A DNA stretch of 64,000 bases from a virus, in IMG/VR virus record IMGVR_UViG_3300027972_000007, positions 106,171 to 170,170 of that record; one strand, written 5' to 3'. Position numbers and translations under genes: made by a program. The notes beneath the pieces are model-generated. The model was not told where the DNA came from. It did no database searches and saw only the letters and a list, made by a program, of their open reading frames with translations. Within the stretch, counting starts at the first letter, position 1. The number at the start of each line of letters is the position of its first letter. Below are positions 31,358-59,056 of this stretch, piece after piece.

Positions 31358-32344
31358 TTAATAATTTTTTATTAATATTTTATCGCCTTTTTTTAATTTT
31401 TCGACTTTTTTCTTACCTTTTGGTGTAAAAATATTATGATTTTTTGTAATTCCTTCATGAAAACAAATATTTCCAAAATTATCTTCAATCGTATATAACT
31501 TTTTTGTATTTTTAATCACATTTTTAAATATTTTAGTTACTTTTTTATTTTCTATTTGTTTTGTCTTAAAATTATATGATTGAACTATATCACCCAATTT
31601 GACATTCTTTATTTTTTTAATGGTATCATCGCCCATTCTAACTGAAGAATCAGGATGAAAACACTCATCAATCAATAATCCTGCAAATCTTTGAAAAAAT
31701 CCAGATTCTTTATTTTGCAGAGTTTGCCATGTACAAATTAAAACTGGTTTTCGTTCGTCGTACTCTTGTCCACTAAATAGAGTACAGACATATTTATCTG
31801 CATCAACCCATCCATAATCTTTAAAGTCTGATAACATTTGAAGCGTAAGATTGGTAGTAGGAACTACCAATAAAACTTGTTTTTGCAATAATAAAAGGTA
31901 TCTAATTAAAACAAAAAGAACTAGACTTTTACCTGAACCCGTAGCACTTACTACCACCCCACGTTTATTCTTTACGGCTATTTTAAATGATTCATCCTGG
32001 TAATCTCTTAACTTAAATTTACTATCTGCAAATAATCTTCGTAAAAATTCATCTAATGTTGAAATCGATATATCATTTCTTATTTCATTAATATCAAATT
32101 TGGTTTCATATTGATATTCATTTTTAATACAAAATCTTTGAAATTCTTTATAAAATCCTATCGGCAACAAAGAATTTTTCATGTCATAAAACGATACTTT
32201 TCCATCCCATTTTTTCATTTTAACAAGAGGATTGAACCACCTATTTTCAATATAGCAAGAAAAATAATCCTTAATTTCTCTTTCTATATCATTATCAGTA
32301 TCCAATTTTAGAAAAATTTCATTATATTTGTATATGTTTATCAA
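31358..32344 (-). CDS. uvsW: UvsW helicase N-terminal part (227 aa) fused to the N-fragment of a split intein (101 aa)
   Basis: WDGK, LRDYQ, SATGSGKS, VVPT, LLIDE, then CFHPDSSV...ITKNH...LKKGDKI and stop. Confidence 0.9.
   Translation of the reverse strand: MINIYKYNEIFLKLDTDNDIEREIKDYFSCYIENRWFNPLVKMKKWDGKVSFYDMKNSLLPIGFYKEFQRFCIKNEYQYETKFDINEIRNDISISTLDEFLRRLFADSKFKLRDYQDESFKIAVKNKRGVVVSATGSGKSLVLFVLIRYLLLLQKQVLLVVPTTNLTLQMLSDFKDYGWVDADKYVCTLFSGQEYDERKPVLICTWQTLQNKESGFFQRFAGLLIDECFHPDSSVRMGDDTIKKIKNVKLGDIVQSYNFKTKQIENKKVTKIFKNVIKNTKKLYTIEDNFGNICFHEGITKNHNIFTPKGKKKVEKLKKGDKILIKNY
31361..31663 (-). other. split intein N-fragment (IntN)
   Basis: Block A Cys1 (CFHPDSSV), block B TxxH (TKNH), no endonuclease domain. 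Confidence 0.9.
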
Positions 32345-32755
32345 CTATATACCACCTTCAAGAAATTTACGATAATCAACATAATTTTTAATAGAAAATC
32401 CCATACTTTTCACTGCATCTAATACTTTTTCTAAATATTTGACAATCACCTCCTGGTCGTTAAAGTTCTTCATTAAAGAACACCACTTATCGTCTTTAAA
32501 TATATATGGTTCTATATCTGTTCTCTTATCTAATTTAAATTGATATTCATGTTTATAATAATGGTAAAGTTGGCCATATACCTTTTCTTTTTCTAAAGAC
32601 ATATTCCGAAATATTTTCAATTGTTCGGAAAAGATTTGACTATAATAAGAGTATAATTTTGGAACTATTAATGATTTATTTAAAACATTATTTTTATCTA
32701 TATTAACATCATCATTAACTTTTTCTTGTAATATTCGAAATTCTTTTTCATCCAT
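32345..32755 (-). CDS. uvsY: recombination mediator UvsY
   Basis: LYHYY...YLEKVLDAVKSMGFSIKNYVDYRKFLEG; next to uvsW as in T4-like phages. Confidence 0.8.
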   Translation of the reverse strand: MDEKEFRILQEKVNDDVNIDKNNVLNKSLIVPKLYSYYSQIFSEQLKIFRNMSLEKEKVYGQLYHYYKHEYQFKLDKRTDIEPYIFKDDKWCSLMKNFNDQEVIVKYLEKVLDAVKSMGFSIKNYVDYRKFLEGGI

Positions 32756-32759
32756 AATA

Positions 32760-33365
32760 CTATTACCTTTATTTTTTATTAAAGAATATTCTGAAGATTT
32801 TGGTTAATACTAATATAACTTATTTGCAGAAAAAAGTCAAGATAAAAATTAATTAAAAATTAATTATTGCTTGAGCGTAGCGAAAGCAATAATTAATTTT
32901 ACTTCGTAGTGTAGCGTAGAAGTTATAAATATACAATTTTGCAAATAAAATATTTAAATTTATAGTGAAAACAATAGATTTAGCAAAAATGAAAATAGTA
33001 TCCCCTTTTAAAATATATATAAATATATTAACTAAAATTTTGTAACTTCAAACTTTTATTTTGCAACAATAAACTTTTATCAAGTCTTTAAGTTAAATTG
33101 CTTTCGCTATGCTCAAGCAATTTATTTTTGTAAACAAAAATTATACCTTTCTATTTATTTTTGCAAGCAAAAGTTTATTCTATATTCTATATTCTTTATT
33201 CTGCATATTGTTTATACTCCTTATTCTGCAAATTATCTATATTCTTTATTTTGCTAACAACAAAAATAATTTTAATGTTTATTATAATACTTGTCTAATA
33301 CCGTTATAAGATTTTTATAATGGTTAAAATTCTTACAATAAAGTAAAAATTTTAAAATTAAATTT
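32760..33365. other. putative replication origin region
   Basis: ~600 bp non-coding and very AT-rich; hairpin at 32856-32900 with an inverted copy of its core at 33095-33123; TATATTCTTTATT repeats; near the strand switch. Confidence 0.45.
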
Positions 33366-33366
33366 T

Positions 33367-34317
33367 TTATAATTTAATTTTTTTAGCTAAAGTATTAAGA
33401 TAAGAGTTTTCAGTTAATTTTGGAAAAATATGTTTTTTACGCCAATCTGATGCATATTCAACATGTCTAGTTCCAAGACTAATTTGTTTATTTTTTTTAT
33501 CTTGTAGAAGACTATGTTCATGTTCTAAATTGGCCATTTTTTCCCAATAATTTATTAAAAATTTCTTATCATTATCGTCATAAAAATAATTACAATCATT
33601 ATATATTAATTTATTTAAAATATGTTCATTTAATTTGCTTGTAGTCGCATAATAATTTTTATAATAATAGTTTCCAGTACATATATTTAATTCATATTCT
33701 GTGTATTTTTTAAATGGTAATTCATCACTTTTAAAATAATTTTTACATTTTTGTCCAATAAAATATTTTGATATATTAGTGCAATCATTATATGATAGAT
33801 TTAAATCATTTCGTAATTCATATTTTGTTACCGGTGTATTATAGTATAATCTTGCTATTAATTCAGTAAATATAAAGTCTCTAAAATTTTTGTATTTTAA
33901 TTTTTTAAATTCATTAAATGTATGATTTTCATAAAGATATAGTTTTGAGTCATAAAAATTAAATATGTTACGATAACCAATTTTAATATTATAGTTTTTA
34001 GTTAGATCAAATATTGTTTTTGTTTGTGATTTTAATTGATATTCAAATTTGTTTTTTTCGATAAAATTAAATTTTGATAATAATTTTAAGTGTGATATAG
34101 TAGTTGGTGTTGAATGTTGATAATTAAATTTTTGTTGTTGAAATATTTTGATTTTTTTTGGATCGATGTTATTTTTTAAAAATATGCACGGTATATACGT
34201 ATCTAATATAGTATTTGGTAGATTTAGTTTATTGAACAATATAGGGAGATTAAAGAGTAATGGCTCTTTATCTTCATCTATTTGCTCTTTATAGTAAAAT
34301 TTATATTTTTCTGTCAT
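33367..34317 (-). CDS. hypothetical protein, possibly origin-binding
   Basis: Isolated 316-aa ORF flanked by long non-coding AT-rich DNA; HTH-like TKYELRNDLNLS. Confidence 0.45.
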   Translation of the reverse strand: MTEKYKFYYKEQIDEDKEPLLFNLPILFNKLNLPNTILDTYIPCIFLKNNIDPKKIKIFQQQKFNYQHSTPTTISHLKLLSKFNFIEKNKFEYQLKSQTKTIFDLTKNYNIKIGYRNIFNFYDSKLYLYENHTFNEFKKLKYKNFRDFIFTELIARLYYNTPVTKYELRNDLNLSYNDCTNISKYFIGQKCKNYFKSDELPFKKYTEYELNICTGNYYYKNYYATTSKLNEHILNKLIYNDCNYFYDDNDKKFLINYWEKMANLEHEHSLLQDKKNKQISLGTRHVEYASDWRKKHIFPKLTENSYLNTLAKKIKL

Positions 34318-34590
34318 TCGAAATTTCTTTTATAAATAGTTTTGAGGGACAGCCAACTTTACTGTCATTCAGTTGGTTTTTTGAACAAGTCGACATTCAG
34401 AATTACCTCACTTTTTAATTATTTATAACCGACGTTTTTAATTATTTATAATAACAATTTTTTTTTATCATTAAAATTTACTTTACATGTAATAATTTTC
34501 ATTATAATTTATTGATTTATATAGCGAAAATATTTTTTAAAAATAGTAAAAATATCTTAAATTCATACTAAAAATTAAATTTTACTTTTT

Positions 34591-34619
34591 AAAATAATTG
34601 ATTTAATTTTAAAAACAAG
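34591..34619 (-). promoter_or_regulatory. conserved phage promoter-like motif (leftward)
   Basis: CTTGTTTTTAAAATTAAATCAATTATTTT. Confidence 0.65.
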
Positions 34620-34938
34620 ATTTATTTTAAATTTATTATTTTTTGTTCTTTTCGTCTAATTTAATCTTCCACAATCTATGTGAGCATTTGGAAGGTTCTA
34701 TATATTCATCTTGTTTTTTATCTAATTTTGCTAATTCACACTCACCCAATTCATTTCTTGGGCAATTATCAATTTCACATTTTGAATTAGTAGTCATAAA
34801 AAATCCTTTTTATTTAATAAAATAATAGATTTAATCAATACTATTTTAATTATTTATAATTTCTATGAAAACAGGAAAATAATTTTATATAATAGTAATA
34901 ATGAGCATATATTATAATATAATAAAGTTTTAATTTTT

Positions 34939-34967
34939 CTTGTTTTTAAAATTAAATCAATTATTTT
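34939..34967 (+). promoter_or_regulatory. conserved phage promoter-like motif (rightward)
   Basis: Identical motif in the opposite orientation, upstream of the right-arm operon. Confidence 0.7.
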
Positions 34968-34991
34968 TTAATTATAAGAAAAGGAAAATAT

Positions 34992-35438
34992 ATGAAAAAT
35001 TATGCTGAACTTCATGATACTTTTTTGAAAAAAGTTAAAGAAAATTTGCCTGAATTAGAAGAAACTTTAAAAAGAGTAAGCGATCACTGGCATTATGAAG
35101 ATTTGATATATAGATTTTATCATTATTCATTTAAGGTTTTTTATATTCAATCAGAGACAGAAAAAATGTTAGAAGTATTAAAGAAGTTAAAACCTAACGA
35201 AAAATGTGAATTTAATGATTTTTTTAAACAGATAGTGATAGAGGGAGTGTGCAAACGTTTTAATTCAGATACAACTAATAAACATTGGTTAAAAGAAACG
35301 AAACCAATGTTAGAAGCATTTTTTCATTGCAAATATTTTATTGAAATGGCTGTTAAATATGGAAAAGAATTAGAAAAAGCGCCTGAATGCATGCCGTCTG
35401 GATGGGCTGGGTTGTTATATTTGTATAATTTGAGGTAA
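34992..35438 (+). CDS. hypothetical protein
   Basis: AAGGA RBS; YEDLIYRFYHYSFKVF...SGWAGLLYLYNLR. Confidence 0.6.
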   Translation: MKNYAELHDTFLKKVKENLPELEETLKRVSDHWHYEDLIYRFYHYSFKVFYIQSETEKMLEVLKKLKPNEKCEFNDFFKQIVIEGVCKRFNSDTTNKHWLKETKPMLEAFFHCKYFIEMAVKYGKELEKAPECMPSGWAGLLYLYNLR

Positions 35439-35440
35439 AC

Positions 35441-35977
35441 ATGAAAATAGAAAGTTTTGGAAATACTGCAAGAAAGAGTGATATTGTTTTAACGCCAGAA
35501 TTAATAGCGAAGGATATAATAGAATATTTTAAACCTTCAGGTATTATTTTAGACCCATGTCGAGGTATTAATGCAGTTTTTCATAAATATATGCCTATAG
35601 GTTCTCCATTTTGTGAAATTCAAGAAGGTATTAATTTTTTTGAATATAATAAATATGTTGATTGGATTATAGGTAATCCACCATATTCGATTTTTAGAGA
35701 ATGGATTACTCATAGTTTTAGTATTTCTAATAATATTGTTTATTTGCTGCCGATTCAATTAGTTTATAATCCGTTACTATTATTACGCGAAATATTTGAA
35801 TATGGCGGTATACCTCATATTAGATGGTATGATGTCGGATCGTATATTTTTTGGAGCCGTTCAAGAATTATAGTAGCAGTTTATTTTAAGAAAAATTATA
35901 AAGGTCCTACTTCGTGGAGTATAGTAAAAAATATATCACAAGATACAAAAATTAAATCATTTATTGAGATGGAATAA
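35441..35977 (+). CDS. N6-adenine DNA methyltransferase-like
   Basis: TP..IA, ILDPCRG, WIIGNPPYS. Confidence 0.7.
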   Translation: MKIESFGNTARKSDIVLTPELIAKDIIEYFKPSGIILDPCRGINAVFHKYMPIGSPFCEIQEGINFFEYNKYVDWIIGNPPYSIFREWITHSFSISNNIVYLLPIQLVYNPLLLLREIFEYGGIPHIRWYDVGSYIFWSRSRIIVAVYFKKNYKGPTSWSIVKNISQDTKIKSFIEME

Positions 35978-35979
35978 AT

Positions 35980-36213
35980 ATGGAAGAAATGAAAGATAAC
36001 TTTTTGGAATTTAGAAAAAATATTGATAATGTTATCACTTATTTAACTAATTTAAGGAATGAAATTAATAAAAATAACGCCAATTTAGTAGAAATATTTA
36101 TTTCAGAAAAACAAGAATCGGAACCGTTTTATAATTCGTATAATACAGTAACTGAATTTGAACCAATATGGAAAGAAAAAGAAATATTAATACGGGACTT
36201 TAGACGGGCATAA
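35980..36213 (+). CDS. hypothetical protein
   Basis: Operon-packed ORF. Confidence 0.45.
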   Translation: MEEMKDNFLEFRKNIDNVITYLTNLRNEINKNNANLVEIFISEKQESEPFYNSYNTVTEFEPIWKEKEILIRDFRRA

Positions 36214-36224
36214 GGATTTCAAAT

Positions 36225-38387
36225 ATGTACATTCATTTCGAGTATATTTCATTTAAAAATTTTCTAAGTTATCCTGCAACTGAAACTAAATTCGAATTTA
36301 AAAAAGGATTTAGTTTACTGACTGCAAAAAATGGCGAAGGAAAATCATCAGTTATTGACGCTTTATCATATAATCTTTTTGGCGAGCCATACAGAAAAAT
36401 TAAATTAGAAGAGCTTATTAATAGAACAAACCGTAAATGTCTTTATACTGAATCGCAATTTAGAATTAATAAAGATGTATATAAAATTATTCGAATGATG
36501 AAACCCGATAAATTAATTATAAAGAAGAACGATACTGAATTGGATATGTTATCGTCAAAGAAATTAATGCAGGAAGAAATTGATAAAATTCTTGGCATAG
36601 ATTATAAAATGTTTAAAAATGTTATTTCACTTGCTATTAACTATAATAAGCCGTTCTTAGAATTATCAAAGCAGGAAAAGAGAGAGATTATTGAATTGAT
36701 TTTTAATGTAGATATTTTTGGCGAAATGTTAAAAGTATTAAAAAAGAAAATATCAATACTTTCTACTGATGTTGAAATAGATAAAAATACAGTAAAAATA
36801 AAAGAAGATAATATAGTAGAAGAGAAGAAAAGAATTGGAAATTTGAAGAAAAGTAAAGAAAATTTTGAAAAGAAGAAGAAAGAAGAAATTGTTGATATTG
36901 AAGATGATATTGATAGAAAAATAGTAAGTATAGAAAAAACAAAACAAAAAATCGAAGAATTAAAAACATTATTAAAAAATATTAATGAATTGAATGAAAC
37001 AACTATTAAAGAATATGAACAAAAAATAATTGAAGAAACGAAAAAAATTGAAGATCAAACTAAAAAAGTAGAAGAAAATATAAGTAATGAAATTGTTGAA
37101 TATAATAAAAAAATAGAAAGTGTTAAAAGGGAAATACTTAATTTAGAAAATGAATTAACAGAAAAAATAGAAAAATTAAAAGAGAATTTAATTGAGTATG
37201 AAAAGGTAGACATTAACAAAGAATCAGAAATTTTAAAACAAATAAAAGTTAAGGAAAATGAAAGTTATTCATTAGAAAAAGACAAAATTAGAATAGGAAA
37301 GAAAGTAGATTTTTTTAAGAATAATGATATTTGTCCGGAATGTGAAGAAAAAATAAGTGAAGAAAAAAGGAATATTAAAATAGAAGAAAAAAATACTCAA
37401 ATAAAAGATATTTTGGAGAATATAAAAAATATTGGGGCAGAAGTCGATATATTAGAAAATAAGATAAAAATTATTAATGAAAAGAAGGTTTTAGAAAGTA
37501 ATGTGAAATTTGAAGAAACAAAAAAGAAAAATGATATTGAAAAATATGATAAATTAATAAAAGAATATAGTGATAAGATATTATTTTTAAACCAATCATT
37601 AGAGAATAAAATTCAAAATATAAAATTATCTTCTAAAGTAAAAGATTATGGGCACGAAATTGATAAATTAAAACAAAACGTAAAGAAAAAAGAAGTCGAT
37701 TCTCAAATACAATTAGAAGAGAAAAATATTGAAAATAATTTATTGAATATTGAAAGTTTAAAAGTTAAAAAAGTTAATGAAGAAAAAAGAGAATTTGATG
37801 TTAATATTGTTGAAATAGAAAAAGAATTTGAAATTAAATGTGATGAATACAAAAATTTATATACTAAATATAAGAGTAATTCTGATCATTTAGATAACTG
37901 CAATATAGCAAAAGAATTATTGTCAGAAAAAGGAATTAAGGCATATTTCTTTAAGAAATTAATACCAATCCTTAATCATAAAGTTAATGGTTATTTAGGT
38001 AAATTTGATTTACCAGTATGTATAGTTTTTTCGGAAGAGATGGAAGAAAAAATTTCTACTTTAGACGGAAGAGAATCGAGTATTAATTATTTTAGTTTTT
38101 CTGCAGGAGAAAGAAAGAGAATAGATTTAAGTATATTATTTAGTTTTATCGATACTATGAAATTAATATCTAATTGGCAGTGTAATATTTATTTTCTCGA
38201 CGAAGTGTTAGATTCAGGTATTGATTCAGATGGGTTAGAAAGTCTTATAAATAATTTAAAGGAGATGTCAGTCAATTCAAAAGATATTGCTATTTATTTA
38301 ATTAGCCATAAACTGCAAGATGATTCAATTTTTGACAATGTAATTAAGGTAGAAAAAGAATTAGGATTTTCAAAAATAATTTTTTAA
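36225..38387 (+). CDS. recombination ATPase subunit (T4 gp46/SbcC/Rad50-like)
   Basis: FKNFLSY, NGEGKS, CPEC zinc hook, FSAGERKRIDL, LDEVLDS, ISH. Confidence 0.95.
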   Translation: MYIHFEYISFKNFLSYPATETKFEFKKGFSLLTAKNGEGKSSVIDALSYNLFGEPYRKIKLEELINRTNRKCLYTESQFRINKDVYKIIRMMKPDKLIIKKNDTELDMLSSKKLMQEEIDKILGIDYKMFKNVISLAINYNKPFLELSKQEKREIIELIFNVDIFGEMLKVLKKKISILSTDVEIDKNTVKIKEDNIVEEKKRIGNLKKSKENFEKKKKEEIVDIEDDIDRKIVSIEKTKQKIEELKTLLKNINELNETTIKEYEQKIIEETKKIEDQTKKVEENISNEIVEYNKKIESVKREILNLENELTEKIEKLKENLIEYEKVDINKESEILKQIKVKENESYSLEKDKIRIGKKVDFFKNNDICPECEEKISEEKRNIKIEEKNTQIKDILENIKNIGAEVDILENKIKIINEKKVLESNVKFEETKKKNDIEKYDKLIKEYSDKILFLNQSLENKIQNIKLSSKVKDYGHEIDKLKQNVKKKEVDSQIQLEEKNIENNLLNIESLKVKKVNEEKREFDVNIVEIEKEFEIKCDEYKNLYTKYKSNSDHLDNCNIAKELLSEKGIKAYFFKKLIPILNHKVNGYLGKFDLPVCIVFSEEMEEKISTLDGRESSINYFSFSAGERKRIDLSILFSFIDTMKLISNWQCNIYFLDEVLDSGIDSDGLESLINNLKEMSVNSKDIAIYLISHKLQDDSIFDNVIKVEKELGFSKIIF

Positions 38388-38394
38388 AGGAATT

Positions 38395-38994
38395 ATGATG
38401 TTTAGAAATATTGTTAGAAGAATAGAAAGATTATTTCAGAGAATATTTAGAGGATGGGATGATAGTGATTTGTGGAGTATCGATTATTCATTTTCTAAAT
38501 GGTTTTTGAAACTATATAATAAAGATTTTAAATTTAGATTTATATTTGTGGAATCATTTAAAGCATTCAATTTAGTATTAAATGAAAGTTATTTAGATTA
38601 TATAGGAATAGATGATTATAAAAGATTATTAGAAGAAAGAGAAAAAGAAATTGATAAAGGGATTAATGAATTAGTAACAAACTATTTTCTTTGGCAAGAA
38701 TATGGTATAGTTGATTGGTTATTACCGAGGTTGAAAAGATTTAGAGAAATGACTAATGGATATCCGACAATAATACCTATAAGTATGAGGTATAAAGATT
38801 TAAAATTAGACGATAAAAAAGAACAAGAATTGACTGAAATGGGATTTAAACAATGGAAACAAATATTAGATAAAATGATTTTAGCATTAGAATTATTAAA
38901 TGAAGAGTTTTATTATTGCGATCCAGTAAAATTAAGAAATGTTAGAAAAGGATTGCAATATTTTAGAAAATATTTTAGAGCATTATGTGATTGA
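38395..38994 (+). CDS. hypothetical phage protein
   Basis: RGWDDSDLWSID, LPRLKRFRE, WKQILDKM. Confidence 0.55.
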   Translation: MMFRNIVRRIERLFQRIFRGWDDSDLWSIDYSFSKWFLKLYNKDFKFRFIFVESFKAFNLVLNESYLDYIGIDDYKRLLEEREKEIDKGINELVTNYFLWQEYGIVDWLLPRLKRFREMTNGYPTIIPISMRYKDLKLDDKKEQELTEMGFKQWKQILDKMILALELLNEEFYYCDPVKLRNVRKGLQYFRKYFRALCD

Positions 38995-39000
38995 GGTATT

Positions 39001-39453
39001 ATGTCTGAATATGTAAATAATGATGATTTTTATTTATTAATAAAAGAGTATCGTAGAACTAAATCTAAAAAAAATTATGAACAAATAGGAAAGATTTTTT
39101 TAGAAATAGTTAATCATTTATTATATAGCCCCCGTTTCATCAATTATGATGATAATATTAAAACTAATATTGTTTCTGATGCGTGTTGGTTTATGGTAAA
39201 ATATATGGATAATTTTGATAGTGAACAATATTCAAATCCATTTTCATATTTTACTACATGTGCGTGGAACGCCGTATTAGCTAATATTAATAAGTTCCAT
39301 AAAACACATAGAACCACAATTTCTTTAAATTCTATGGATAATTTAAATGAAACAGATTCGGTTAATGTAGATTATAATGAAACGTATAAAGTTGATGAAG
39401 ACTTTGTTGAAAATGAAATTAAAAAATATATTTCTCATTATTATAAAACATAG
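39001..39453 (+). CDS. late-transcription sigma factor (T4 gp55-like)
   Basis: YVNNDDF, PRFINY, NFD...NPFSYFT; near gp46/gp47. Confidence 0.8.
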   Translation: MSEYVNNDDFYLLIKEYRRTKSKKNYEQIGKIFLEIVNHLLYSPRFINYDDNIKTNIVSDACWFMVKYMDNFDSEQYSNPFSYFTTCAWNAVLANINKFHKTHRTTISLNSMDNLNETDSVNVDYNETYKVDEDFVENEIKKYISHYYKT

Positions 39454-39527
39454 CAGGGTGGACTGGATGAGGTACCAGCTCAGCCTCATAAGCTGAATTA
39501 AGTGAGTTCGAGTCTCACCCCCTGCTA
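39452..39527 (+). tRNA. tRNA with CAT anticodon (Met or Ile2)
   Basis: Acceptor AGCAGGG/CCCTGCT, anticodon arm TCAGC-CTCATAA-GCTGA, T arm GTGAG-TTCGAGT-CTCAC. Confidence 0.85.
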
Positions 39528-39549
39528 CCTTATTCTGAAGGAGTTGAAA

Positions 39550-40596
39550 GTGAAAGTTGGTTTAATTGCAGATTTGCATTTCGGTATTCATAAATCTTCC
39601 AATATTTTTTTAGATTCACAATTAAAATATTTTAATGACGAATTTATTCCTTATCTAAAAAATAATACTATTAATGATGTGTTTATTTTAGGAGATATTT
39701 TTGATAATAGAAATTCAATTAATGTAAAAATTATTAATGAAGTATATCATTTATTCGATGAATTATCAAAAGTTAGTAAATTATATATTCTAATTGGCAA
39801 TCACGATATGTATTTGAAAACTAATAATGATATTCATTCGTTGAAGTTTTTAAAGAAATTTGAAAATATAAAACTAATCGATGATAAAGAAATAATAGAG
39901 ATAAACGATAAAAAAATATTATTATCTTCGTGGCAAATAGACGAGAATGATTTTACAAAATATCTGAATAATGTAACTGCAGATTATTGTTTTGGCCATT
40001 TCGATATAAATGGTTTTAAGATGAATAAATTTAAGAATTGCGATATGGGATTTAATGATAAAATTTTTCATAGATTTAAAAAAGTTTTTAGTGGCCATTA
40101 TCATTTAAGAAGTAGTCAAACCAAGAATAATACAGAAATAATATATGTTGGAACACCATATTCTTTTACACGAGATGATATTAATGAAGAAAAAGGATTT
40201 TGTGTATTAGATTTAGAAAAAGATAATTATGAATTTATAAATAATAAAAATAGTATTAAGTTTATTCTTATAAAATACCCAACAGAGATCAATAAAGATT
40301 TAATCAAAAATAATATAGTAGACGTTCAAGTTGAATATAATGATAAGTATAATGAAGCAGATTTTCAAAATTATTTGCAAAAAATAGAAACTTTTTCGCC
40401 TATTAGTGTGAGTACGAAATTAATTAATAATTTTTTAACTGGCGATGAAATAAAAAATGTAGAAGAATACAAAACAACTGATATATTGTCATTAATTGAT
40501 CAATATATTATGGGATTGGATATTAATAATAAAGAGAAAATAGAAAGAATAATTCATGAATTATATGAAGAAGTGAAAGTGAGTACGGTAAAATGA
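39550..40596 (+). CDS. recombination nuclease subunit (T4 gp47/SbcD/Mre11-like)
   Basis: ADLHFG, LGDIFDNR, GNHD, FSGHYH; GTG start at 39550 after AAGGAG. Confidence 0.93.
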   Translation: MKVGLIADLHFGIHKSSNIFLDSQLKYFNDEFIPYLKNNTINDVFILGDIFDNRNSINVKIINEVYHLFDELSKVSKLYILIGNHDMYLKTNNDIHSLKFLKKFENIKLIDDKEIIEINDKKILLSSWQIDENDFTKYLNNVTADYCFGHFDINGFKMNKFKNCDMGFNDKIFHRFKKVFSGHYHLRSSQTKNNTEIIYVGTPYSFTRDDINEEKGFCVLDLEKDNYEFINNKNSIKFILIKYPTEINKDLIKNNIVDVQVEYNDKYNEADFQNYLQKIETFSPISVSTKLINNFLTGDEIKNVEEYKTTDILSLIDQYIMGLDINNKEKIERIIHELYEEVKVSTVK

Positions 40597-40931: not shown

Positions 40932-40948
40932 ATTAAAGGATAAATAAT

Positions 40949-41347: not shown

Positions 41348-41357
41348 AGGATAAATA

Positions 41358-42566: not shown

Positions 42567-42571
42567 TTTAT

Positions 42572-47953: not shown

Positions 47954-47954
47954 T

Positions 47955-49549: not shown

Positions 49550-50116
49550 ATGGAATCATCAGTTATTAGAGTATTTTCAATTATTAGTAATATTAGGGAA
49601 TCTTTGAAGAAGAATAAAGAAATAGATATAGATAGATTAGTTTTTTTTAAAAGACTGGAAAGGATGCATGATTTTTTAAAAAAACATTATAAAAGAATTT
49701 ATAACGAAATAGAAAATTCTTTTTATACGTATGTTGATTTGAAATTGTTTTGTTATCATCAAATTATTCTTAATGATAGAGTTAAAGAACAAGATATTAA
49801 TCAAAAGAATGTTTTAGCAATAAAAGAAGAATATACAGAAAAAAATATAGAATTTAATAAAAAGGTATTGATAGCAATTGATAATAAAATGAGATTGGGT
49901 TCATTGAAAAAATATTTTATGATACGCAGTAATGGAATTTCATTGATTTATGAATTAATTAAGATTAAACGTTATATTAGTGTATATTTTTGGATTTTGA
50001 ATGATAAATTTTTTAAAGCTCATTTAGATGAAAGTGCTGAACATTTGAAATTTAGAAATAGTTGTATTTTATTTAAAAAACAAATTAAACTTTTTGAAAG
50101 GAGTTTATATGTCTAA
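49550..50116 (+). CDS. hypothetical protein (position resembles the gp59 helicase loader)
   Basis: Directly upstream of gp32; no clear motif. Confidence 0.4.
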   Translation: MESSVIRVFSIISNIRESLKKNKEIDIDRLVFFKRLERMHDFLKKHYKRIYNEIENSFYTYVDLKLFCYHQIILNDRVKEQDINQKNVLAIKEEYTEKNIEFNKKVLIAIDNKMRLGSLKKYFMIRSNGISLIYELIKIKRYISVYFWILNDKFFKAHLDESAEHLKFRNSCILFKKQIKLFERSLYV

Positions 50117-51056: not shown

Positions 51057-52063
51057 TGGAAAATAATTCACTGCTCAAAAAATATTTAGGAATTGTTCTT
51101 TCAACTTATTTCCCCGAAACTACTCAACACGATCAGGGAAATAAGTTTAATTTTCGCTGCAATATTTGCGGTGATAGTAAACAATCTAAGAAAAAGAAAA
51201 GAGGATGGTTATTATTATATAAAGGTACTTGGATTTTTAAATGTTGGAATTGTCCTACTCCAACGATGCTTGCAAAACAATGGTTAAAAATTTATTTCCC
51301 AGAATTTTATAGTATGTATATAAAAGAAATTTTGCAAACCGATGGGATAAAAAAACCAGAAAATGTAACAAAACAGATAATATTCGATGTTAAAGAGAAA
51401 GGTATAGAAGTCGATCAGTTACAGTATTTTATACCTTTCTCTAATGTTGATTTTAAATCTGAAAATTTTAAAATAGCATTAAAGATTTTGCAAGATAGAA
51501 GAATTCCAAAATACGTTTATAAAGATTGGTTTTTTTGTTTTGATAATAAATTTAGGGATAGAATTATTATACCTATTTATGATAAGGATAATAAAATTAT
51601 TTATTGGCAAGGCAGGACTATATTTAAGAATTTTGAGCCTAAATATATGAATTGTTCAGTTAATAAAACTAAAGTTATATTATCACAATTAGAAAAAGTA
51701 AATAAACAAAAACCAATATTAGTTTTTGAGGGATATATTGATTCTATTTTTGCTGATAATTCTATTAATGTTTTAGGTTATAATTTTGGTAAAGATGTTG
51801 AGAGAGAATTAGATAAATTGCAGTGTTATTATGTGATTGATTTTGAAACTGTAGAAGAAACTAAAAAAAGAATTTTAGAATTATTGCAAAAAGGGAAATA
51901 CATATTTAATTGGAAAAGATTTTTAAAATATAATAATATACCATTTAGAAAAAAATGGGATTTTAATGATTTATATATTTATATGAATAGAGATAAAAAT
52001 TTTACTTTTGAAGAATTGAAATGTTGGTTTACCAATAATTGGTTCGATAAAATTTATTTTTAA
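51056..52063 (+). CDS. DNA primase (T4 gp61-like)
   Basis: NFRCNICGDS zinc finger, RIIIP, WQGR, FEGYIDS, DFND. Confidence 0.92.
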   Translation: MENNSLLKKYLGIVLSTYFPETTQHDQGNKFNFRCNICGDSKQSKKKKRGWLLLYKGTWIFKCWNCPTPTMLAKQWLKIYFPEFYSMYIKEILQTDGIKKPENVTKQIIFDVKEKGIEVDQLQYFIPFSNVDFKSENFKIALKILQDRRIPKYVYKDWFFCFDNKFRDRIIIPIYDKDNKIIYWQGRTIFKNFEPKYMNCSVNKTKVILSQLEKVNKQKPILVFEGYIDSIFADNSINVLGYNFGKDVERELDKLQCYYVIDFETVEETKKRILELLQKGKYIFNWKRFLKYNNIPFRKKWDFNDLYIYMNRDKNFTFEELKCWFTNNWFDKIYF

Positions 52064-52074
52064 AAGGATAAAAT

Positions 52075-53028
52075 ATGAAAAAAATATTGCAGATCGATGG
52101 CGGCGGCCTGAAAGGTATAATACCGGCAATTATATTAGAAAATTTTGAAAAGAAAATTGGTAAACAGTGTTGTGACGTTTTCGATCTTATTTGTGGTACT
52201 TCTACTGGCGCTGTTATTGGTGGCGTTTTAGCATCAGGCGTTACGCCCGCGAGTACCATTAAAAAAATGTATGTTGAAAAAGTACCAAAATTATTTACTC
52301 CGAGAGTACCATTATTTCCATTTTTAGGAACTTTATTTAAAGGTTCAAAATATGATAAAGAGGAATTTATAGAATTGATAAAAAAATATACTGGCCATAA
52401 AAAAATGAAAGATGCTAATACATTGTTTATGGCAACCACTATGAATTTATGTTCCGGTAGAACTCATTTTATTTATTCAGACGACGCGTATGAGAAAGAT
52501 TACTATATATGGGAAATAATATCTTGGTCTGCTTTATCTGCAGCAGCATATTTTGGTAAAATAAATGTGCCGGGATTTATATGGGATGATTTTTTGCCTG
52601 ACGGGTCTGTTATAGAAGATATAAAAGGCGGAGTTTTTCAGGATGGAGGTCAAGGAATAAATAATTGTACTTTAGGAACAGCGACGCTTATTTCTGTTGC
52701 TAAAAAATGGTTCGATGAAGGCGTAGTAATTTTATCTATAGGATGCGGTGATTATCATAAAGCAGAAACATATGAAGAAGCATCTAAAACCGGTTGGTTA
52801 GGCCAAGTAGTAGATTTTTTTACACAGGCAAGAAATGAAGCACAAATAACGCAATATATGGCATCAAGATATATTTCAATAACAAGAAAAGAAAATTATA
52901 CTTTAGTAAGAGTAAATTGTTTTATGCCAAAAAAAGCTGATACATTGGACGGAGTAAAATATGTCGATACTTATCAAACACTCGGCAATCAATTAAAAGA
53001 TTCGATACCGTTTGAATTATTTAAATAG
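52075..53028 (+). CDS. patatin-like phospholipase
   Basis: DGGGLKG, GTSTG, DGG. Confidence 0.9.
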   Translation: MKKILQIDGGGLKGIIPAIILENFEKKIGKQCCDVFDLICGTSTGAVIGGVLASGVTPASTIKKMYVEKVPKLFTPRVPLFPFLGTLFKGSKYDKEEFIELIKKYTGHKKMKDANTLFMATTMNLCSGRTHFIYSDDAYEKDYYIWEIISWSALSAAAYFGKINVPGFIWDDFLPDGSVIEDIKGGVFQDGGQGINNCTLGTATLISVAKKWFDEGVVILSIGCGDYHKAETYEEASKTGWLGQVVDFFTQARNEAQITQYMASRYISITRKENYTLVRVNCFMPKKADTLDGVKYVDTYQTLGNQLKDSIPFELFK

Positions 53029-53039
53029 AGGAGATTAAG

Positions 53040-53663
53040 ATGAAAATTATTAAACCAAGTTTTGAAATTATGGATAACGTTGATGGAATTAAGTTATTAA
53101 AAAACATTGAGAGATATGGCAGAATATGTTATAAGACAGAAGGAAAAATAACAGAAGAATCTTATAAAGAGTTTGTTAAAAAAAGAATAGATGAAGGACA
53201 TGAAGCAATTATTGAACACGAAAAAATTACAGTAATAATAACTTGTGATAGAGGAGTAACACACGAAATTGTAAGACACAGAATAGCAAGTTATTCGCAA
53301 GAATCGACTCGTTATTGTAATTATTCTAATGATATTTTTGGAAATGAAATAACAGTTATTGAACCGTTTTTTCTTGTAGATAAGCCATTACCTTATAAAA
53401 TTTGGGAACACTCTTGTTTATATAGTGAAGTAAAATATTTCGATTTATTAAATGCAGGATCGACGGCACAAGAGGCAAGATCAGTTTTGCCTAATTCTTT
53501 AAAAACCGAAATAGTAGTTACAATGAATTTAAGAGAGTGGAGACATTTTTTTAAATTAAGAACAGCCAAATCAGCTCACCCACAAATGAGAGAAATTACT
53601 ATTCCAATGCTGGCTAAATTTAAAGAATTAATTCCAATCATTTTTGATAATATTAATAATTAG
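53040..53663 (+). CDS. thyX: flavin-dependent thymidylate synthase
   Basis: GHEAIIEH, RGVTHEIVRHRIASYSQESTRY. Confidence 0.97.
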   Translation: MKIIKPSFEIMDNVDGIKLLKNIERYGRICYKTEGKITEESYKEFVKKRIDEGHEAIIEHEKITVIITCDRGVTHEIVRHRIASYSQESTRYCNYSNDIFGNEITVIEPFFLVDKPLPYKIWEHSCLYSEVKYFDLLNAGSTAQEARSVLPNSLKTEIVVTMNLREWRHFFKLRTAKSAHPQMREITIPMLAKFKELIPIIFDNINN

Positions 53664-53669
53664 GGGGGT

Positions 53670-53942
53670 GTGTTTATGATAAGTAAAAAAACTTGGCAAG
53701 AATTTAGAAATACTGGTTTATTATTTTTTATAAATCAGATACTTCATGTTTTTGGATGGGCTATTGTAGTTGCTTTTAAAAATTATGATAGTGAAAAAGA
53801 TGAAGGAGAAATAAATGATGTTTATCCTGCAAGAGTTACATTTCGCGGATTTGGAGAAAAATCAATAGATAAAGGTTATAAAGCAATTTCAAAATTTATG
53901 AAAGATAATGCAGATGAATTATTGAAAGAGGCAAACGAATAA
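53670..53942 (+). CDS. hypothetical phage protein
   Basis: WQEFRNTGLLFFINQILHVFGW...RVTFRGF. Confidence 0.6.
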   Translation: MFMISKKTWQEFRNTGLLFFINQILHVFGWAIVVAFKNYDSEKDEGEINDVYPARVTFRGFGEKSIDKGYKAISKFMKDNADELLKEANE

Positions 53943-54523
53943 TGAAATTTTTAGGTATAGATAGTAGTTCGAAAAGTACTGGTTGGGCATTAATAGAAGA
54001 TAAAAAACTTATAGAATATGGTAAAATTAATCCAACTGATATTTCGTCTTATTGCCAAAAATTAAATCTATTTTATGTTGAAATTGGTAAAATATTTGAA
54101 AGATTCAGACCAGATAAAATAGCTATAGAAGAAACTGTTTTTGTAAGAAATTCAAAATCTTTTCGAGTATTAGCGAGGATACATGGAGTAATTTTATTGG
54201 CAGTTTATCAATATTTAAATGAAGAACCAGTATTATATGAGCCATCTAAATGGAAAAAAATGTTAGATGATTGCAATGGTTCAGCTAAAAAATATGAAAT
54301 ACAATTATCTGTTTGTAAAATTTATAATTTAATGAAAATAGAAAAAATTCAATCATATTTGAAAAGAGCTGAAAGTATAAAAAATGATAGTAAATTGAAT
54401 AAAAAAGAAAAGAATAAATTATTTGATCAATTGAGTATTGAAATTTATTCAGAAAGTGGAATTAATAATGATATTGCCGATGCTATTGGTATAACTACAG
54501 TTTTAGAAAAGGAGTTGAAATGA
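53942..54523 (+). CDS. RuvC-like Holliday junction resolvase
   Basis: LGIDSSSKSTGW, IAIEE, PSKWKK, DIADAIGI. Confidence 0.8.
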   Translation: MKFLGIDSSSKSTGWALIEDKKLIEYGKINPTDISSYCQKLNLFYVEIGKIFERFRPDKIAIEETVFVRNSKSFRVLARIHGVILLAVYQYLNEEPVLYEPSKWKKMLDDCNGSAKKYEIQLSVCKIYNLMKIEKIQSYLKRAESIKNDSKLNKKEKNKLFDQLSIEIYSESGINNDIADAIGITTVLEKELK

Positions 54524-54726
54524 TAACCAGAACTATATTAGATGTTTTGAAAGAATATATTGATGCTAAAATTAATTTAGAAAGATATTGTGATGCCGAC
54601 GATTCTAACGATTTTAAAGAAGCAGACGAAAGATTGGAAAAAGCAGAAAAAGTATTAGAAGAAGCAAATGAAAGATTTATAATTATAGCTAAACAAATTG
54701 ATGAAAGGATTAAAGATGGAAAGTAA
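54520..54726 (+). CDS. hypothetical protein
   Basis: Operon-packed ORF. Confidence 0.45.
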   Translation: MITRTILDVLKEYIDAKINLERYCDADDSNDFKEADERLEKAEKVLEEANERFIIIAKQIDERIKDGK

Positions 54727-55648
54727 TTTATCAAATTTTATGCAAATTGAAAAGGCTAAGAATAAAATTTTAATTTTTGATTTTCATAATTTATGTTATC
54801 GAACTATTTTTGTAGCAGCAAATGAATTTAGAAATAATCAAACAAAAGTTTTTGATAGAGATCCCGAAATGAAGGATTTATATCAATATTGGAAACATAT
54901 AGTTTTAAATGCATTTTTTTATAATAGTTTAGAAAAAAATCCAAGTAAAATTATTATTGCAGTAGATGAAAGGAATAGTTGGAGAAAAAAAGTATATTCT
55001 GGTTATAAAGAAAATAGAGCTAAAAGTAGAGAAGATTCGCTGGTAGATTTTGGAACGTTTTTTCCAATAATGAATGAGTTTATAAATAATTTAAAAGAGA
55101 TGTTTCCGAATGTTTATATTCTCAAAGTAAATGAATGTGAAGCTGATGATATTATAGCAGTTTTAACAGCAGAATTAGCAAAAGACGATAATCGTATTGA
55201 ATTAATTAGTACAGATAAAGATTTTTATCAACTTCACAAATTTAAAAATTTTAAACAGTTTAATCCCATCAAAAAAGAATATGTAGTTTCAATGAATCCC
55301 AAAAAAGATTTAGAAGTAAAAATTTTAACGGGCGATAAGGGAGACGATATTCCAGCAGTTAGAGAACGTTTAGGAGAAAAAACTGCAGAGAAATTATTAA
55401 ATGAGGGATTAGAAGAATTATTACAAGACGAAGTTGTAAAAAAGAATTTTATTAGAAATAGAGAATTAATAGATTTTGATTATATACCGGCAAATTTAAA
55501 GGAAAAAATTATTCAAGAATATAAAAATTATCCTTTGAATACTATGGATAGAAGTATTATTTGGGCTTGGTTATTAAGAGAAAAATTAAAAAAATTAGCA
55601 GACGAATTTCAAAAATTTGTTTTGTTGTTTAATAATTTGAACTCATAA
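54716..55648 (+). CDS. rnh: T4 RNase H-like 5'-3' exonuclease
   Basis: SWRK..Y..YK.NR, EADDIIA, STDKDF, GDKGDDIP. Confidence 0.92.
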   Translation: MESNLSNFMQIEKAKNKILIFDFHNLCYRTIFVAANEFRNNQTKVFDRDPEMKDLYQYWKHIVLNAFFYNSLEKNPSKIIIAVDERNSWRKKVYSGYKENRAKSREDSLVDFGTFFPIMNEFINNLKEMFPNVYILKVNECEADDIIAVLTAELAKDDNRIELISTDKDFYQLHKFKNFKQFNPIKKEYVVSMNPKKDLEVKILTGDKGDDIPAVRERLGEKTAEKLLNEGLEELLQDEVVKKNFIRNRELIDFDYIPANLKEKIIQEYKNYPLNTMDRSIIWAWLLREKLKKLADEFQKFVLLFNNLNS

Positions 55649-55703
55649 CATATTAGTAATATGCCGTTATTTATTCTTATAATAATAAAATATTAATAGT
55701 GAA

Positions 55704-56156
55704 ATGACAGAACACAATTTTTTTAATGTAGCAAATAAATCGAAATTTCTTGGTTCTTCTAATCCCATTTATCGTTCGTCGTGGGAAAAAAGAATAATGA
55801 CATTTTGTGATATTAATGAACGAGTGAAAAGATGGGGTTATGAATATGTTACTATACCATATTATGGCGGCGATGGTAAACAGCATCGGTATATTATAGA
55901 TTTTTATATAGAAATTTTAGATAATAGTAATAAATTACGAAAATGTTTGGTTGAAGTGAAGCCAATGAAAGATTCAGTTAAACCTAAACCGCCAAAAGTT
56001 AATAATAGAAAAGCAATGTTTCGATATATTTACGAATTAAATACTTTTAAGAAAAATACTAATAAATGGAATGCGGCAAGAATGTTTTGTGAAAGTAAAA
56101 ATTTAGAATTTCATGTTTTAACTGAAGCTACAATTAAAAGATTTGGTGCTCTATAA
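55704..56156 (+). CDS. head completion nuclease (T4 gp4/TnsA-like)
   Basis: YRSSWE, IPY...HRYIIDF, VEVKP, KWNAA. Confidence 0.88.
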   Translation: MTEHNFFNVANKSKFLGSSNPIYRSSWEKRIMTFCDINERVKRWGYEYVTIPYYGGDGKQHRYIIDFYIEILDNSNKLRKCLVEVKPMKDSVKPKPPKVNNRKAMFRYIYELNTFKKNTNKWNAARMFCESKNLEFHVLTEATIKRFGAL

Positions 56157-56341
56157 TGTTTAATATTTCTCAGGCAGTCAATAAAAAAACTAGTAGAATG
56201 AATATAGGAGAAATTAAGGATGCTATTAAATTAGTAAAAGAAGTTATTGATAATGATAATTTTCAATATGATAAAAAATTGTTTAGAGATAGAATGGACG
56301 AACTTGTAGAACAATTAAAGATAAGAGAGGAAAGAATGTAA
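56156..56341 (+). CDS. hypothetical protein
   Basis: TAATG-coupled on both sides. Confidence 0.5.
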   Translation: MFNISQAVNKKTSRMNIGEIKDAIKLVKEVIDNDNFQYDKKLFRDRMDELVEQLKIREERM

Positions 56342-58089
56342 TGAATAATATAGTGGAGGATTATGTAGATAATAATGATTGGAGGGTAAAAGAAAATGCT
56401 AATGTTGGTTATTCATTGGGCGGTTTAATTCTACATAATAGCGGCGCATTAACAGCTAATTATTGGTTATATGAGATTTATGATAAAAAGATTAGAGATT
56501 ATCATAAAAAAGGTTATTTTCATATTCATGATTTATCGATGCTTTCGACCTACTGCTGCGGGTGGAGTTTGAGAGATTTAATTTATAAAGGATTGTGCGG
56601 CGTAGAAAATAAAGTATCATCAAAACCACCAAAACATTTACATAGTTTATGTCAAACAATAATTAATTTTTTTGGTGTGATGCAAAACGAGTCCGCAGGC
56701 GCACAAGCTTTTAGTTCTTTCGATACATATTTAGCACCTTTTGTTAGAGAAGATAAGTTAAAATTTGAAGAAGTTAAACAGTGTATTCAATCATTTATTT
56801 TTGGTGTCAATGTGGCTTCGAGATGGGGTTCACAGAGTCCTTTTACTAATATTACTATAGATTGGAAAGTTCCAAATGATTTGAAAGATCAACATGCTAT
56901 AGTTGCAGGAAAGGATTTAAAAACTACATATTCAGATTATCAAGAAGAGATGGATATAATTAATAAAGCATTGATAGAAATTATGATTGAAGGAGACGCT
57001 AATGGAAGAATCTTTAATTATCCAATAATTACATATAATATAACAAAAGATTTTGATTGGAATTCACATAATGCAAATTTGCTTTTTAAAATGGCAGGTA
57101 AATATGGACAATGTTATTTTGCTAATTTTATTCATAGCGACTTAGACCCATCGGATATTCGCTCCATGTGCTGCAGGCTTAGACTCGATAAGAGAGAGTT
57201 AGTAAGAAGAGCTGGTGGATTATTTGGTGCGGGTGAATTAACGGGCAGCGTTGGCGTAGTTACACTCAATATGCCGCGTATTGGTTATACAGCAAAAAAT
57301 AAAGAAGAATATTTTAGTTTATTATCAGAAACTATGGATATTGCTAAAAATTCATTAGAATTAAAAAGAGAGGCTTTAAATGATTTTTTAAATAGAGGTT
57401 TATATCCTTATATTAGAAATTATTTAAAAAATTGGAATAATCATTTTTCAACGATTGGTTTGGTTGGAATGAATGAGTCAGTTTTAAATTTTCTAAAAAA
57501 AGATTTAACGCACGAAGATTCTATAAATTTTACTCTCGAAGTATTAGATTTTATGAATAAGAAATTATCAGATTATCAAGAAAAGACAGGTAATTTATAT
57601 AACCTCGAAGCATCACCGGCGGAGGGAACAAGTTATAGATTAGCAAGAATTGATAAAAAAAGATATAAAAATATTATTCAATCAGGAGATGGCGAGCCAT
57701 ATTACACTAATTCAACACAATTACCAGTTAATTGGTCAGATGATTTGTTTGCTTCATTAGATATACAAGATAGAATTCAGGTTAAGTATACTGGGGGAAC
57801 TGTATTTCATTGTTTTTTGGGTGAAGCAATTGATGATTTTGTTACTGTTAGAAATTTAGTGAAAAAAATAGCAAATAATTATAAAATTCCTTATTTTACT
57901 ATAAGTCCAGTATTTTCTACTTGTAAAGATCATGGGTATTTAAAAGGCGAACATTTTAATTGTCCGAATTGCGGTGGAAAGACTGAAATTTATTCGAGAA
58001 TTGTAGGATATTATAGACCACTTGAAAATTGGAATAGCGGCAAAAAATCCGAATATTCTAAAAGAAAAAGTTTTAAATTGAAGGAATAG
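56341..58089 (+). CDS. nrdD: anaerobic (class III) ribonucleotide reductase, no ATP cone
   Basis: DWRVKENAN, HIHDL, SMCCRL, PAEGTSYR, CxxH..CxxC, YSRIVGYYRP glycyl loop. Confidence 0.96.
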   Translation: MNNIVEDYVDNNDWRVKENANVGYSLGGLILHNSGALTANYWLYEIYDKKIRDYHKKGYFHIHDLSMLSTYCCGWSLRDLIYKGLCGVENKVSSKPPKHLHSLCQTIINFFGVMQNESAGAQAFSSFDTYLAPFVREDKLKFEEVKQCIQSFIFGVNVASRWGSQSPFTNITIDWKVPNDLKDQHAIVAGKDLKTTYSDYQEEMDIINKALIEIMIEGDANGRIFNYPIITYNITKDFDWNSHNANLLFKMAGKYGQCYFANFIHSDLDPSDIRSMCCRLRLDKRELVRRAGGLFGAGELTGSVGVVTLNMPRIGYTAKNKEEYFSLLSETMDIAKNSLELKREALNDFLNRGLYPYIRNYLKNWNNHFSTIGLVGMNESVLNFLKKDLTHEDSINFTLEVLDFMNKKLSDYQEKTGNLYNLEASPAEGTSYRLARIDKKRYKNIIQSGDGEPYYTNSTQLPVNWSDDLFASLDIQDRIQVKYTGGTVFHCFLGEAIDDFVTVRNLVKKIANNYKIPYFTISPVFSTCKDHGYLKGEHFNCPNCGGKTEIYSRIVGYYRPLENWNSGKKSEYSKRKSFKLKE

Positions 58090-58090
58090 A

Positions 58091-58207
58091 ATGTTAAATA
58101 CTATTACGGTTGAAAAATTACATTCAAGGGATTATAGAGGGAATGTTTATAATCTTGAAGTAGAAGATAATCATAATTATTTTGTTGATGATATTTTAGT
58201 TTCAAAT
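58091..58207 (+). other. split intein C-fragment (IntC)
   Basis: Block F VYNLEV..NHNY, terminal Asn at 58205-58207, Cys+1 at 58208-58210. Confidence 0.9.
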
Positions 58208-59056
58208 TGTCATGGAGCCAAATCTTATGAAGTTAATAAAATAGGAAAACGTTGTATTAATGCAGATTATAGATTTGGTTTTACTGGTACATTATCAGAT
58301 TCAAAAATTGATAATATGAATATTCAGGCAGTATTAGGAGAAAAAATCTTCGATTTAAAACCAAAAGAATTAATTGAAAAAGGAGTTTTATCAAATGTAC
58401 TTATTGCAAATATTATTTTGAAGTACCCAGAAAATATTTGTTTAGAATTTAAGCCTAAAGTATTTATGATTAACGGTAAAAAAACTATAATAAGGAAATC
58501 TTATATAGAAGAACTCGATTATTTGTATGAAAAGTATGAACATAGAAATAAGATATTAAAGTGGATTTTTAGTAAAATTAAGGATGGAGAAAATTCATTA
58601 ATTCTTGTTAGAAAAATAGAGCATTTAAAAAAGGTTGAGGAATTTTTAATAAATAATTTAGAGAAGGGTAAATATAAAATTTTTGTTGTATATGGAGAGA
58701 CAAAAGCTGCAGAAAGAGAACGTATAAGAAAATTAATGGAAAGTGAAAGTAATATGATTATCGTTTCAAATTTTGCAGTTTTTAAAATGGGTATTAATAT
58801 TAAGAAATTAATGAATGTGGTTTTATATTCTTCTCTAAAAAGCGATATTAGCATTCCACAGGCCATTGGGCGTTCCCTTCGTGCTCATTCTGAAAAAGTA
58901 AAAGCAGTTATATGGGATGTTGTAGACGATCTCAGAATTAAGAAATTTAAAAATTATTGTTTTGTTCATTTTTTAAGAAGGTTAGAATTATATAAAAAAT
59001 ATAATTTCGATTATATAACTAAAGAATTAGAAATTAATAAAATAAAGGAGCTATAA
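58091..59056 (+). CDS. uvsW: split intein C-fragment (39 aa) fused to the UvsW helicase C-terminal part (282 aa)
   Basis: VYNLEVEDNHNYFVDDILVSN|C, then HGAKS, RFGFTGT, GINIKKL, QAIGRSLR, WDVVDD. Confidence 0.9.
   Translation: MLNTITVEKLHSRDYRGNVYNLEVEDNHNYFVDDILVSNCHGAKSYEVNKIGKRCINADYRFGFTGTLSDSKIDNMNIQAVLGEKIFDLKPKELIEKGVLSNVLIANIILKYPENICLEFKPKVFMINGKKTIIRKSYIEELDYLYEKYEHRNKILKWIFSKIKDGENSLILVRKIEHLKKVEEFLINNLEKGKYKIFVVYGETKAAERERIRKLMESESNMIIVSNFAVFKMGINIKKLMNVVLYSSLKSDISIPQAIGRSLRAHSEKVKAVIWDVVDDLRIKKFKNYCFVHFLRRLELYKKYNFDYITKELEINKIKEL

Follow-up and report, generated by a model that had tools for sequence, protein, structure and literature searches.

The stretch analysed here (64,000 nt; hereafter the window) is the final 64 kb of a 170,170-bp viral contig from IMG/VR (IMGVR_UViG_3300027972_000007, positions 106,171 to 170,170 of that record), which belongs to an uncultured, T4-like phage. 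The window carries two open reading frames (ORFs) that resemble the two halves of uvsW, the gene for a T4-type superfamily 2 (SF2) helicase that acts in branch migration and R-loop unwinding, each half being joined to one piece of an intein. The gene for the N half (31358-32344, minus strand; 328 amino acids (aa)) encodes a 227-aa UvsW N-extein (31664..32344) with the UvsW_N domain and motifs I, Ia and II up to LLIDE. Directly after LLIDE comes Cys1 of a 101-aa N-terminal intein fragment (IntN; 31361..31663), which starts CFHPD and has ITKNH as its block B, and then the stop codon (31358-31360). The gene for the C half (58091-59056, plus strand; 321 aa) opens with a 39-aa C-terminal intein fragment (IntC; 58091..58207), whose blocks F and G read NLEVEDNHNYF...LVSN and which ends NHNYFVDDILVSN, with a penultimate Ser and a terminal Asn39. 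It continues with a 282-aa UvsW C-extein plus stop (58208..59056) that starts CHGAKS and runs from motif III (GFTGT) through motif VI (QAIGRSLR). An initial annotation, made from the letters alone, had proposed these coordinates, strands and motifs, the intein pieces of 101 and 39 aa and the junction VSN|C (the bar marks the splice site), all of which the ORF listing and Pfam bore out. It had also placed the halves in divergent arms of the genome, in agreement with their opposite strands and the gap of 25.7 kb between them.

To the helicase parts, Pfam assigned UvsW_N (PF21241, E 9e-11) and ResIII/DEAD in the N gene, which also matched Hint, and Helicase_C in the C gene. In phmmer searches of the PDB, the N gene aligned to residues 11-235 of T4 UvsW (2oca; E 2.5e-26) and the C gene to residues 231-501 (E 2.3e-27). 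The exteins tile T4 UvsW, leaving no gap and no overlap, and both alignments meet at T4 NDECH, with the junction DE|CH. Because of this tiling, splicing would rebuild the DECH box, to which the C-extein supplies Cys+1 and the His that follows it. As had been predicted for the restored Walker B motif, the joined exteins come to 227 + 282 = 509 aa, against 510 aa in the T4 UvsW chain. They contain UvsW_N and two RecA-like domains, with motifs I-VI colinear with T4 UvsW.

The remaining parts of the two genes correspond to one intein. Of the Intein_splicing profile, the N gene matches positions 3-94 and the C gene positions 122-155; IntN and IntC are complementary in that they cover different positions, and only positions 95-121, the linker, are missing. 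We built profiles from 11 IntN pieces and from 20 IntC pieces and compared them with inteins of solved structure. The IntN profile matched DnaB mini-inteins (E 4e-10), gp41-1 (E 1e-7), Npu DnaE (E 3e-6) and NrdJ-1 (E 7e-6), always over residues ~5-96. With the IntC profile (E 2.6e-7), it was the C-terminal ~30 residues that matched, in the Spl DnaX, DnaB, NrdJ-1 and gp41-1 inteins as well as in the free Npu IntC chains. To judge from these values, the matches lie far beyond chance. The proposal that motif II of this uvsW holds a genuine split intein was therefore upheld by both pieces. Each piece belongs to a separate ORF with its own start and stop, and the break falls between blocks B and F. 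Since IntN and IntC match complementary parts of the solved inteins, the intein is split at the canonical site, the loop usual for a homing-endonuclease domain. Conservation follows the expected chemistry: C1, T73 and H76 (the block A Cys and the block B T-x-x-H) are invariant in the 11 IntN relatives; N27, N29, V37, S38 and N39 are invariant in 20-23 IntC relatives; and VSN|CH, with the terminal Asn39 and Cys+1, is invariant in 23 C halves. Identity to the nearest relative is 72% for IntN and 80% for the N-extein, which argues that the intein is under constraint.

From the sequence, we consider it very probable that the two ORFs together constitute a single uvsW gene, interrupted by a split class-1 intein, and that their products are joined by protein trans-splicing into a 509-aa UvsW. 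The anatomy and homology of the genes, the conserved residues and, as described below, the conserved layout and the single clade are direct observations. Several points weigh against this reading. Splicing itself is deduced from sequence alone. The individual Pfam intein matches fall below the curated cut-offs, so that significance rests on the family profiles. The penultimate residue of IntC is Ser38, not the usual His; it is invariant in the family, and the homologous allele of the cultured phages S16 and PM2 has His. In class-1 inteins a penultimate His is common but not universal, and the Ser is the only departure from a textbook active site. The contig is estimated to be ~74% complete, which leaves room for another partner elsewhere in the genome. 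Lastly, the exact distance and the strands of the halves could be read in the window alone and in no relative. The possibility of a second partner had been raised at the outset; the four segments were compared by BLAST with every ORF of the 170-kb contig, and the contig was searched with PF14890, but neither search revealed a further uvsW or intein piece there.

An intein-like pair of tails need not ligate anything. The tails could serve as a dimerisation module that only docks the halves non-covalently, giving a two-chain UvsW that works without ligation. Fragmented phage enzymes can work as non-covalent assemblies, reportedly including the Aeh1 NrdA that is split by mobE, and the Ser in place of the penultimate His would suit such a role. 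Docking alone, however, would not need Cys1, the block B Thr and His, the terminal Asn and Cys+1 to be invariant over more than 20 diverged sequences, and the break lies inside the DECH box, which must be continuous. We therefore regard docking without ligation as quite improbable.

The surroundings of the halves bear on whether they are expressed and whether their separation is real. Both genes abut the gene upstream of them and have good ribosome-binding sites. The N half follows uvsY (32345..32755, minus strand; PF11056, E 8.7e-14): its TTG start comes right after the uvsY stop codon TAG without a spacer, the ribosome-binding site GAAGGTGG lies upstream, and the two genes are probably co-transcribed. 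On its other side the N half is flanked by a 102-aa ORF. The C half follows nrdD, for anaerobic ribonucleotide reductase (56341..58089, plus strand; PF13597, E 1e-186); its ATG lies 1 nt past the nrdD stop codon and has its own ribosome-binding site, GAAGGAA. Directly downstream is the gene for a 413-aa protein (59057..60298, plus strand; phrog_704, 'DNA repair exonuclease', E 7e-78) that combines an N-terminal CxxC...CxxC zinc ribbon with a metallophosphatase / 'DNA repair exonuclease' body. It is the second Mre11/SbcD-like protein of the window, the other being gp47 at 39502-40596.

The same junctions recur in other assemblies. The context of the C half, namely a ribonucleotide reductase gene (plus small ORFs), the C half and a gene for an exonuclease-like protein of ~400 aa, was found in five independent contigs: the window, a 152-kb ENA scaffold (L007), L095, L096 and a 115-kb NCBI contig (GCA_024449895.1). 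The upstream reductase gene is nrdD in four of them and class II-like in L095, where a NUMOD3-like ORF is inserted ahead of the exonuclease-like gene; this last gene is kept in all relatives with the scattered layout, and nrdD is a new, conserved neighbour of the uvsW C half. Around the C halves of these four relatives, no N-extein or IntN lies within 7-21 kb. The context of the N half (uvsY, N half, then a radical-SAM region) was found in four contigs, namely the window, L006, L124 and the NCBI contig, and in the last three no C half lies beside it. Both halves are present once in the NCBI contig (P0004, the N half; P0049, the C half), with over 10 kb between them. Within IMG/VR, the window has no close relative, the best match being 43% identical and contiguous, and a scan of genome contigs gave only unrelated intein matches.

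These contigs also address the concern, raised with the initial annotation, that the arrangement is a misassembly. A chimeric contig whose real genome has adjacent halves might be suspected, since this is a metagenomic contig that ends in a tandem repeat and is ~74% complete. Against this, independent ENA, Logan, NCBI and JGI assemblies share the nrdD/C half/exonuclease-like and the uvsY/N half/radical-SAM junctions (five contigs for the C half and four for the N half, with both in the 115-kb contig), and the neighbours lie 0-23 bp from each half, with no room for a lost partner. An assembly artefact is thus the least probable of the explanations we weighed, with hardly any chance of being correct.

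Two genes beside scattered N halves are recorded here for completeness. In L124, the radical-SAM gene downstream of the N half (2656-3483) holds a contiguous mini-intein that ends VHN|C. In the NCBI contig, 1.4 kb separate the uvsW N half from an IS605 OrfB/TnpB-like gene (373 aa; locus coordinates 12345-13466) on its downstream side.

To place the scattered layout in the history of the gene, we made a quick IQ-TREE phylogeny of 44 C-exteins. It places all five of the mapped scattered forms inside a single clade of 11 rows (starred in the tree), with a Shimodaira-Hasegawa-like approximate likelihood ratio test (SH-aLRT) value of 95. A single change suffices for the scattered state, where label shuffles require 4.8 on average. 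Forms in which adjacent halves flank another ORF ('fractured' genes, described below) are spread across the tree and need four changes. The nearest outgroups of the scattered clade include intein-less forms and the fractured gene of L097. As in the DnaE type of scattered gene, the halves lie at separate loci and the layout is kept within one clade, a pattern that fits a single relocation in the ancestor of that clade. The order of events along the tree can only be tentative, because the search was short and the tree is unrooted.

The divergence within the clade speaks to function. The halves could in principle be decaying remnants of a fractured gene in a phage without a working UvsW, and the absence of the endonuclease gene and the separation of the halves are changes that could follow loss of function. 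Both ORFs, however, are intact with all helicase motifs present, the halves are tightly coupled to their upstream genes, and at least five other contigs of scattered layout retain them at 42-86% identity. Extein identity among the scattered-layout C halves is as low as 42-56%, and a divergence of this extent argues that selection has kept both halves. Decay is accordingly very improbable. All the rival explanations are disfavoured, because the catalytic residues are invariant, the ORFs are intact and conserved, and the junctions are recovered in independent assemblies. The finding is real and well supported, and the split gene is likely to be functional.

The uvsW allele of the window also exists in other states. 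The common state is a contiguous, intein-less uvsW beside uvsY, as in Campylobacter phage Los1 and most of the 80 IMG/VR loci examined. Adjacency of uvsY and uvsW is also seen in L092, L093, L098 and L124, and uvsY is the ancestral neighbour of uvsW. A contiguous mini-intein of 164-200 aa, of the same type and at the same DE|CH site, occurs in two related SF2 helicases (P0090 and P0091), which have a linker where the window intein is split. In P0090 this linker holds an extra Cys-x2-Cys ... His insert, at the place of the split or of the endonuclease in other forms. A 1389-aa SNF2 helicase ORF (L002, 8096-12265) has two LAGLIDADG-bearing inteins, the second of which is the closest IMG/VR relative of the window intein (37% identity in IntN; 75% in the last 20 IntC residues).

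In the fractured state, a single strand carries, one after another, an N half with IntN, an ORF of 250-300 aa and an IntC joined to the C half. We found this order in the cultured Salmonella phage S16 (gp114 / gp114.1 / gp115) and Proteus phage PM2 (gp180-182), whose GenBank labels are only 'DNA helicase' and 'hypothetical protein', and in the metagenomic loci L016, L092, L093/94, L097 and L098. The ORFs between the halves are homologues of one another (S16 against L093, E 6e-22) and carry a TnsA-like PD-(D/E)xK core, with NUMOD3 in addition in L097. PHROGs families exist for both halves (phrog_16259 and phrog_9690), with near end-to-end matches that include the intein pieces. The initial annotation thus set the novelty of the window gene too high: the same allele, at DE|CH, is an ordinary fractured gene in S16, PM2 and several metagenomic contigs.

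Further interruptions of uvsW were seen in three loci. In L098 (1030-5294) the gene is broken into three or more pieces, beginning with a 90-aa UvsW_N ORF. Next come a 275-aa unknown ORF among others, an ORF with ResIII and IntN, a 116-aa ORF and lastly IntC with the C half. In L049 (798-2498) and L072 (1541-3831), otherwise contiguous uvsW genes have insertions of ~1 kb at other positions, one near N-extein residue 139 and the other between residue 194 and the C-extein; these insertions may be introns or other inteins.

A TnsA-like gene is also present in the window, one gene upstream of the C half (55704-56156, plus strand; 150 aa; PF08722, E 1e-19). Its position, and a catalytic core in common with the S16 and L093 endonucleases (E ~1e-7), made it a candidate for a remnant of the homing endonuclease. 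We rejected this candidate because it matches the T4 gp4 head-completion family over its full length (phrog_218, E 1e-41) and because it follows rnh in all relatives. With this gene recognised as the T4 gp4 ortholog, the earlier observation that neither half has a homing endonuclease gene beside it stands. The catalytic core common to the gp4 ortholog and the homing endonucleases of fractured uvsW reads RSSWE ... IIDF ... EVKP, and this endonuclease family may derive from, or have a common origin with, a phage core gene.

We compared the window uvsW with three known systems. The fractured uvsW of S16 and PM2 shares the host protein and the DE|CH insertion point with the window gene, and its homologous intein (IntN 33-34% identity over 97 residues; IntC 57% over the last 21 residues) is likewise divided at the canonical site, into pieces of similar size (97-98 aa, plus ~35 aa as measured in PM2). 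In those phages, however, the halves share a strand and are separated only by a 291-aa TnsA-like endonuclease gene, whereas in the window they are 25.7 kb apart on opposite strands, without an endonuclease gene. The inteins differ as well: that of S16 ends AHN and has net charges of -7 (IntN) and +5 (IntC), whereas that of the window ends VSN and has net charges of +14 and -4. Through this reversed charge polarity, the two pairs may be orthogonal.

In the split DnaE of cyanobacteria (Ssp/Npu), dnaE-n and dnaE-c are at separate loci (PMC2677866). Like the window uvsW, DnaE is an essential DNA-metabolism enzyme with a naturally split class-1 intein, its halves lie at separate loci without an endonuclease, and the layout is kept through a clade, as if by one breaking event. 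Unlike DnaE, the window gene involves another host protein, another intein family (the Npu DnaE match has E 3e-6) and a phage genome rather than a bacterial chromosome, and contiguous and fractured intermediates of the uvsW allele are still present in relatives.

The fractured genes described by Dassa et al. in 2009 comprise gp41-1 to -8, NrdJ-1, IMPDH-1, NrdA, DnaE, ligase and terminase, and UvsW is not among the eight enzyme types listed (PMC2677866). Like the window gene, they are phage-type replication and repair genes with split inteins of ~90-105 aa plus 35-40 aa, and gp41-1 and NrdJ-1 are detectable homologues of the window IntN (E 1e-7 and 7e-6). The defining feature of those loci, an endonuclease gene flanked by the two adjacent halves, is present in S16, PM2, L016, L092-94, L097 and L098 but absent from the window. 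From these comparisons, the window uvsW would be a DnaE arrangement in function and, by descent, a derivative of the phage fractured genes. In the open-access literature we found no paper that combines 'split intein' with UvsW. The trans-splicing mechanism is already known; what is new is the scattered, endonuclease-free stage for UvsW.

This anatomy suggests a route to the helicase. Each half would be translated independently, the N half from the leftward uvsY operon and the C half from the rightward nrdD operon. The basic IntN (+14) and the acidic IntC (-4), whose charges would fit electrostatic pairing, would associate and fold into one HINT domain, in which Cys1, the block B Thr and His, Asn39 and Cys+1 would carry out standard protein trans-splicing. 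The product would be a 509-aa UvsW with its DECH box restored, and the two intein pieces would be released. As to history, we propose that a contiguous uvsW beside uvsY was invaded by an intein with an endonuclease, and that this led to a fractured gene made up of the N half, a TnsA-like endonuclease gene and the C half. In the clade of the window, the endonuclease gene would then have been lost and the C half would have moved once, to the nrdD locus, after which selection would have kept both halves. A single inversion with a breakpoint between the halves, reasoned through on the gene maps, does not reproduce the observed gene orientations.

In T4, UvsW switches replication from origin R-loops to recombination. 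The initial annotation had proposed that active helicase needs both arms expressed. The location of the halves in divergent arms could in principle make UvsW a post-translational AND-gate, in which the helicase would be active only if the uvsY operon and the nrdD/replication operon were both expressed and trans-splicing would time the replication switch; we think this unlikely. Transcription diverges from ~34.5 kb in the window, where the GC skew also flips. The rightward arm holds a replication and recombination module with genes for gp46, gp47, DNA polymerase, UvsX, a gp41-like helicase, gp32, primase, ThyX, RuvC, RNase H and gp4, and the uvsW C half lies at its end. A scan for sigma-70-type promoters found fewer sites than in shuffled sequence, and matches to the T4 late motif TATAAATA numbered 39, with 30 ± 6 expected. 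Neither scan is informative about timing in this DNA of 25% GC.

Three other features of the contig were noted. Its overall GC content is 27.7%, and within the window GC rises to as much as 0.41 across 62-64 kb. The contig ends (window ~63700-64000) in a tandem repeat with a unit of ~36 nt and a Ser/Glu/Ala/Pro-rich coding potential, at which the assembly probably broke. The sole tRNA found in the window, tRNA-Met (CAT; 39452-39529), overlaps the listed GTG start of the gp47/SbcD-like ORF, whose true start is probably further downstream.

For annotation, these results mean that ~320-aa half-genes labelled 'DNA helicase' should be read as parts of uvsW, including those whose partner lies tens of kilobases off. 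The initial annotation had also suggested a new compact split-intein pair. The pair is a natural one of 101 + 39 aa, with Cys at +1, a Ser-Asn C-terminus, a strongly basic IntN and an acidic IntC; 'compact' does not hold, since that size is usual for split inteins. Together with its charge-reversed S16 counterpart, it is a possible orthogonal ligation tool. For the biology of the family, one intein allele is visible at every stage of the proposed pathway, from the intein-less gene through a contiguous mini-intein and a fractured gene that has an endonuclease to scattered halves without one. The origin of the DnaE-type arrangement has so far been deduced mostly from its end state, and this allele series provides a comparative system for how such an arrangement arises and is fixed.

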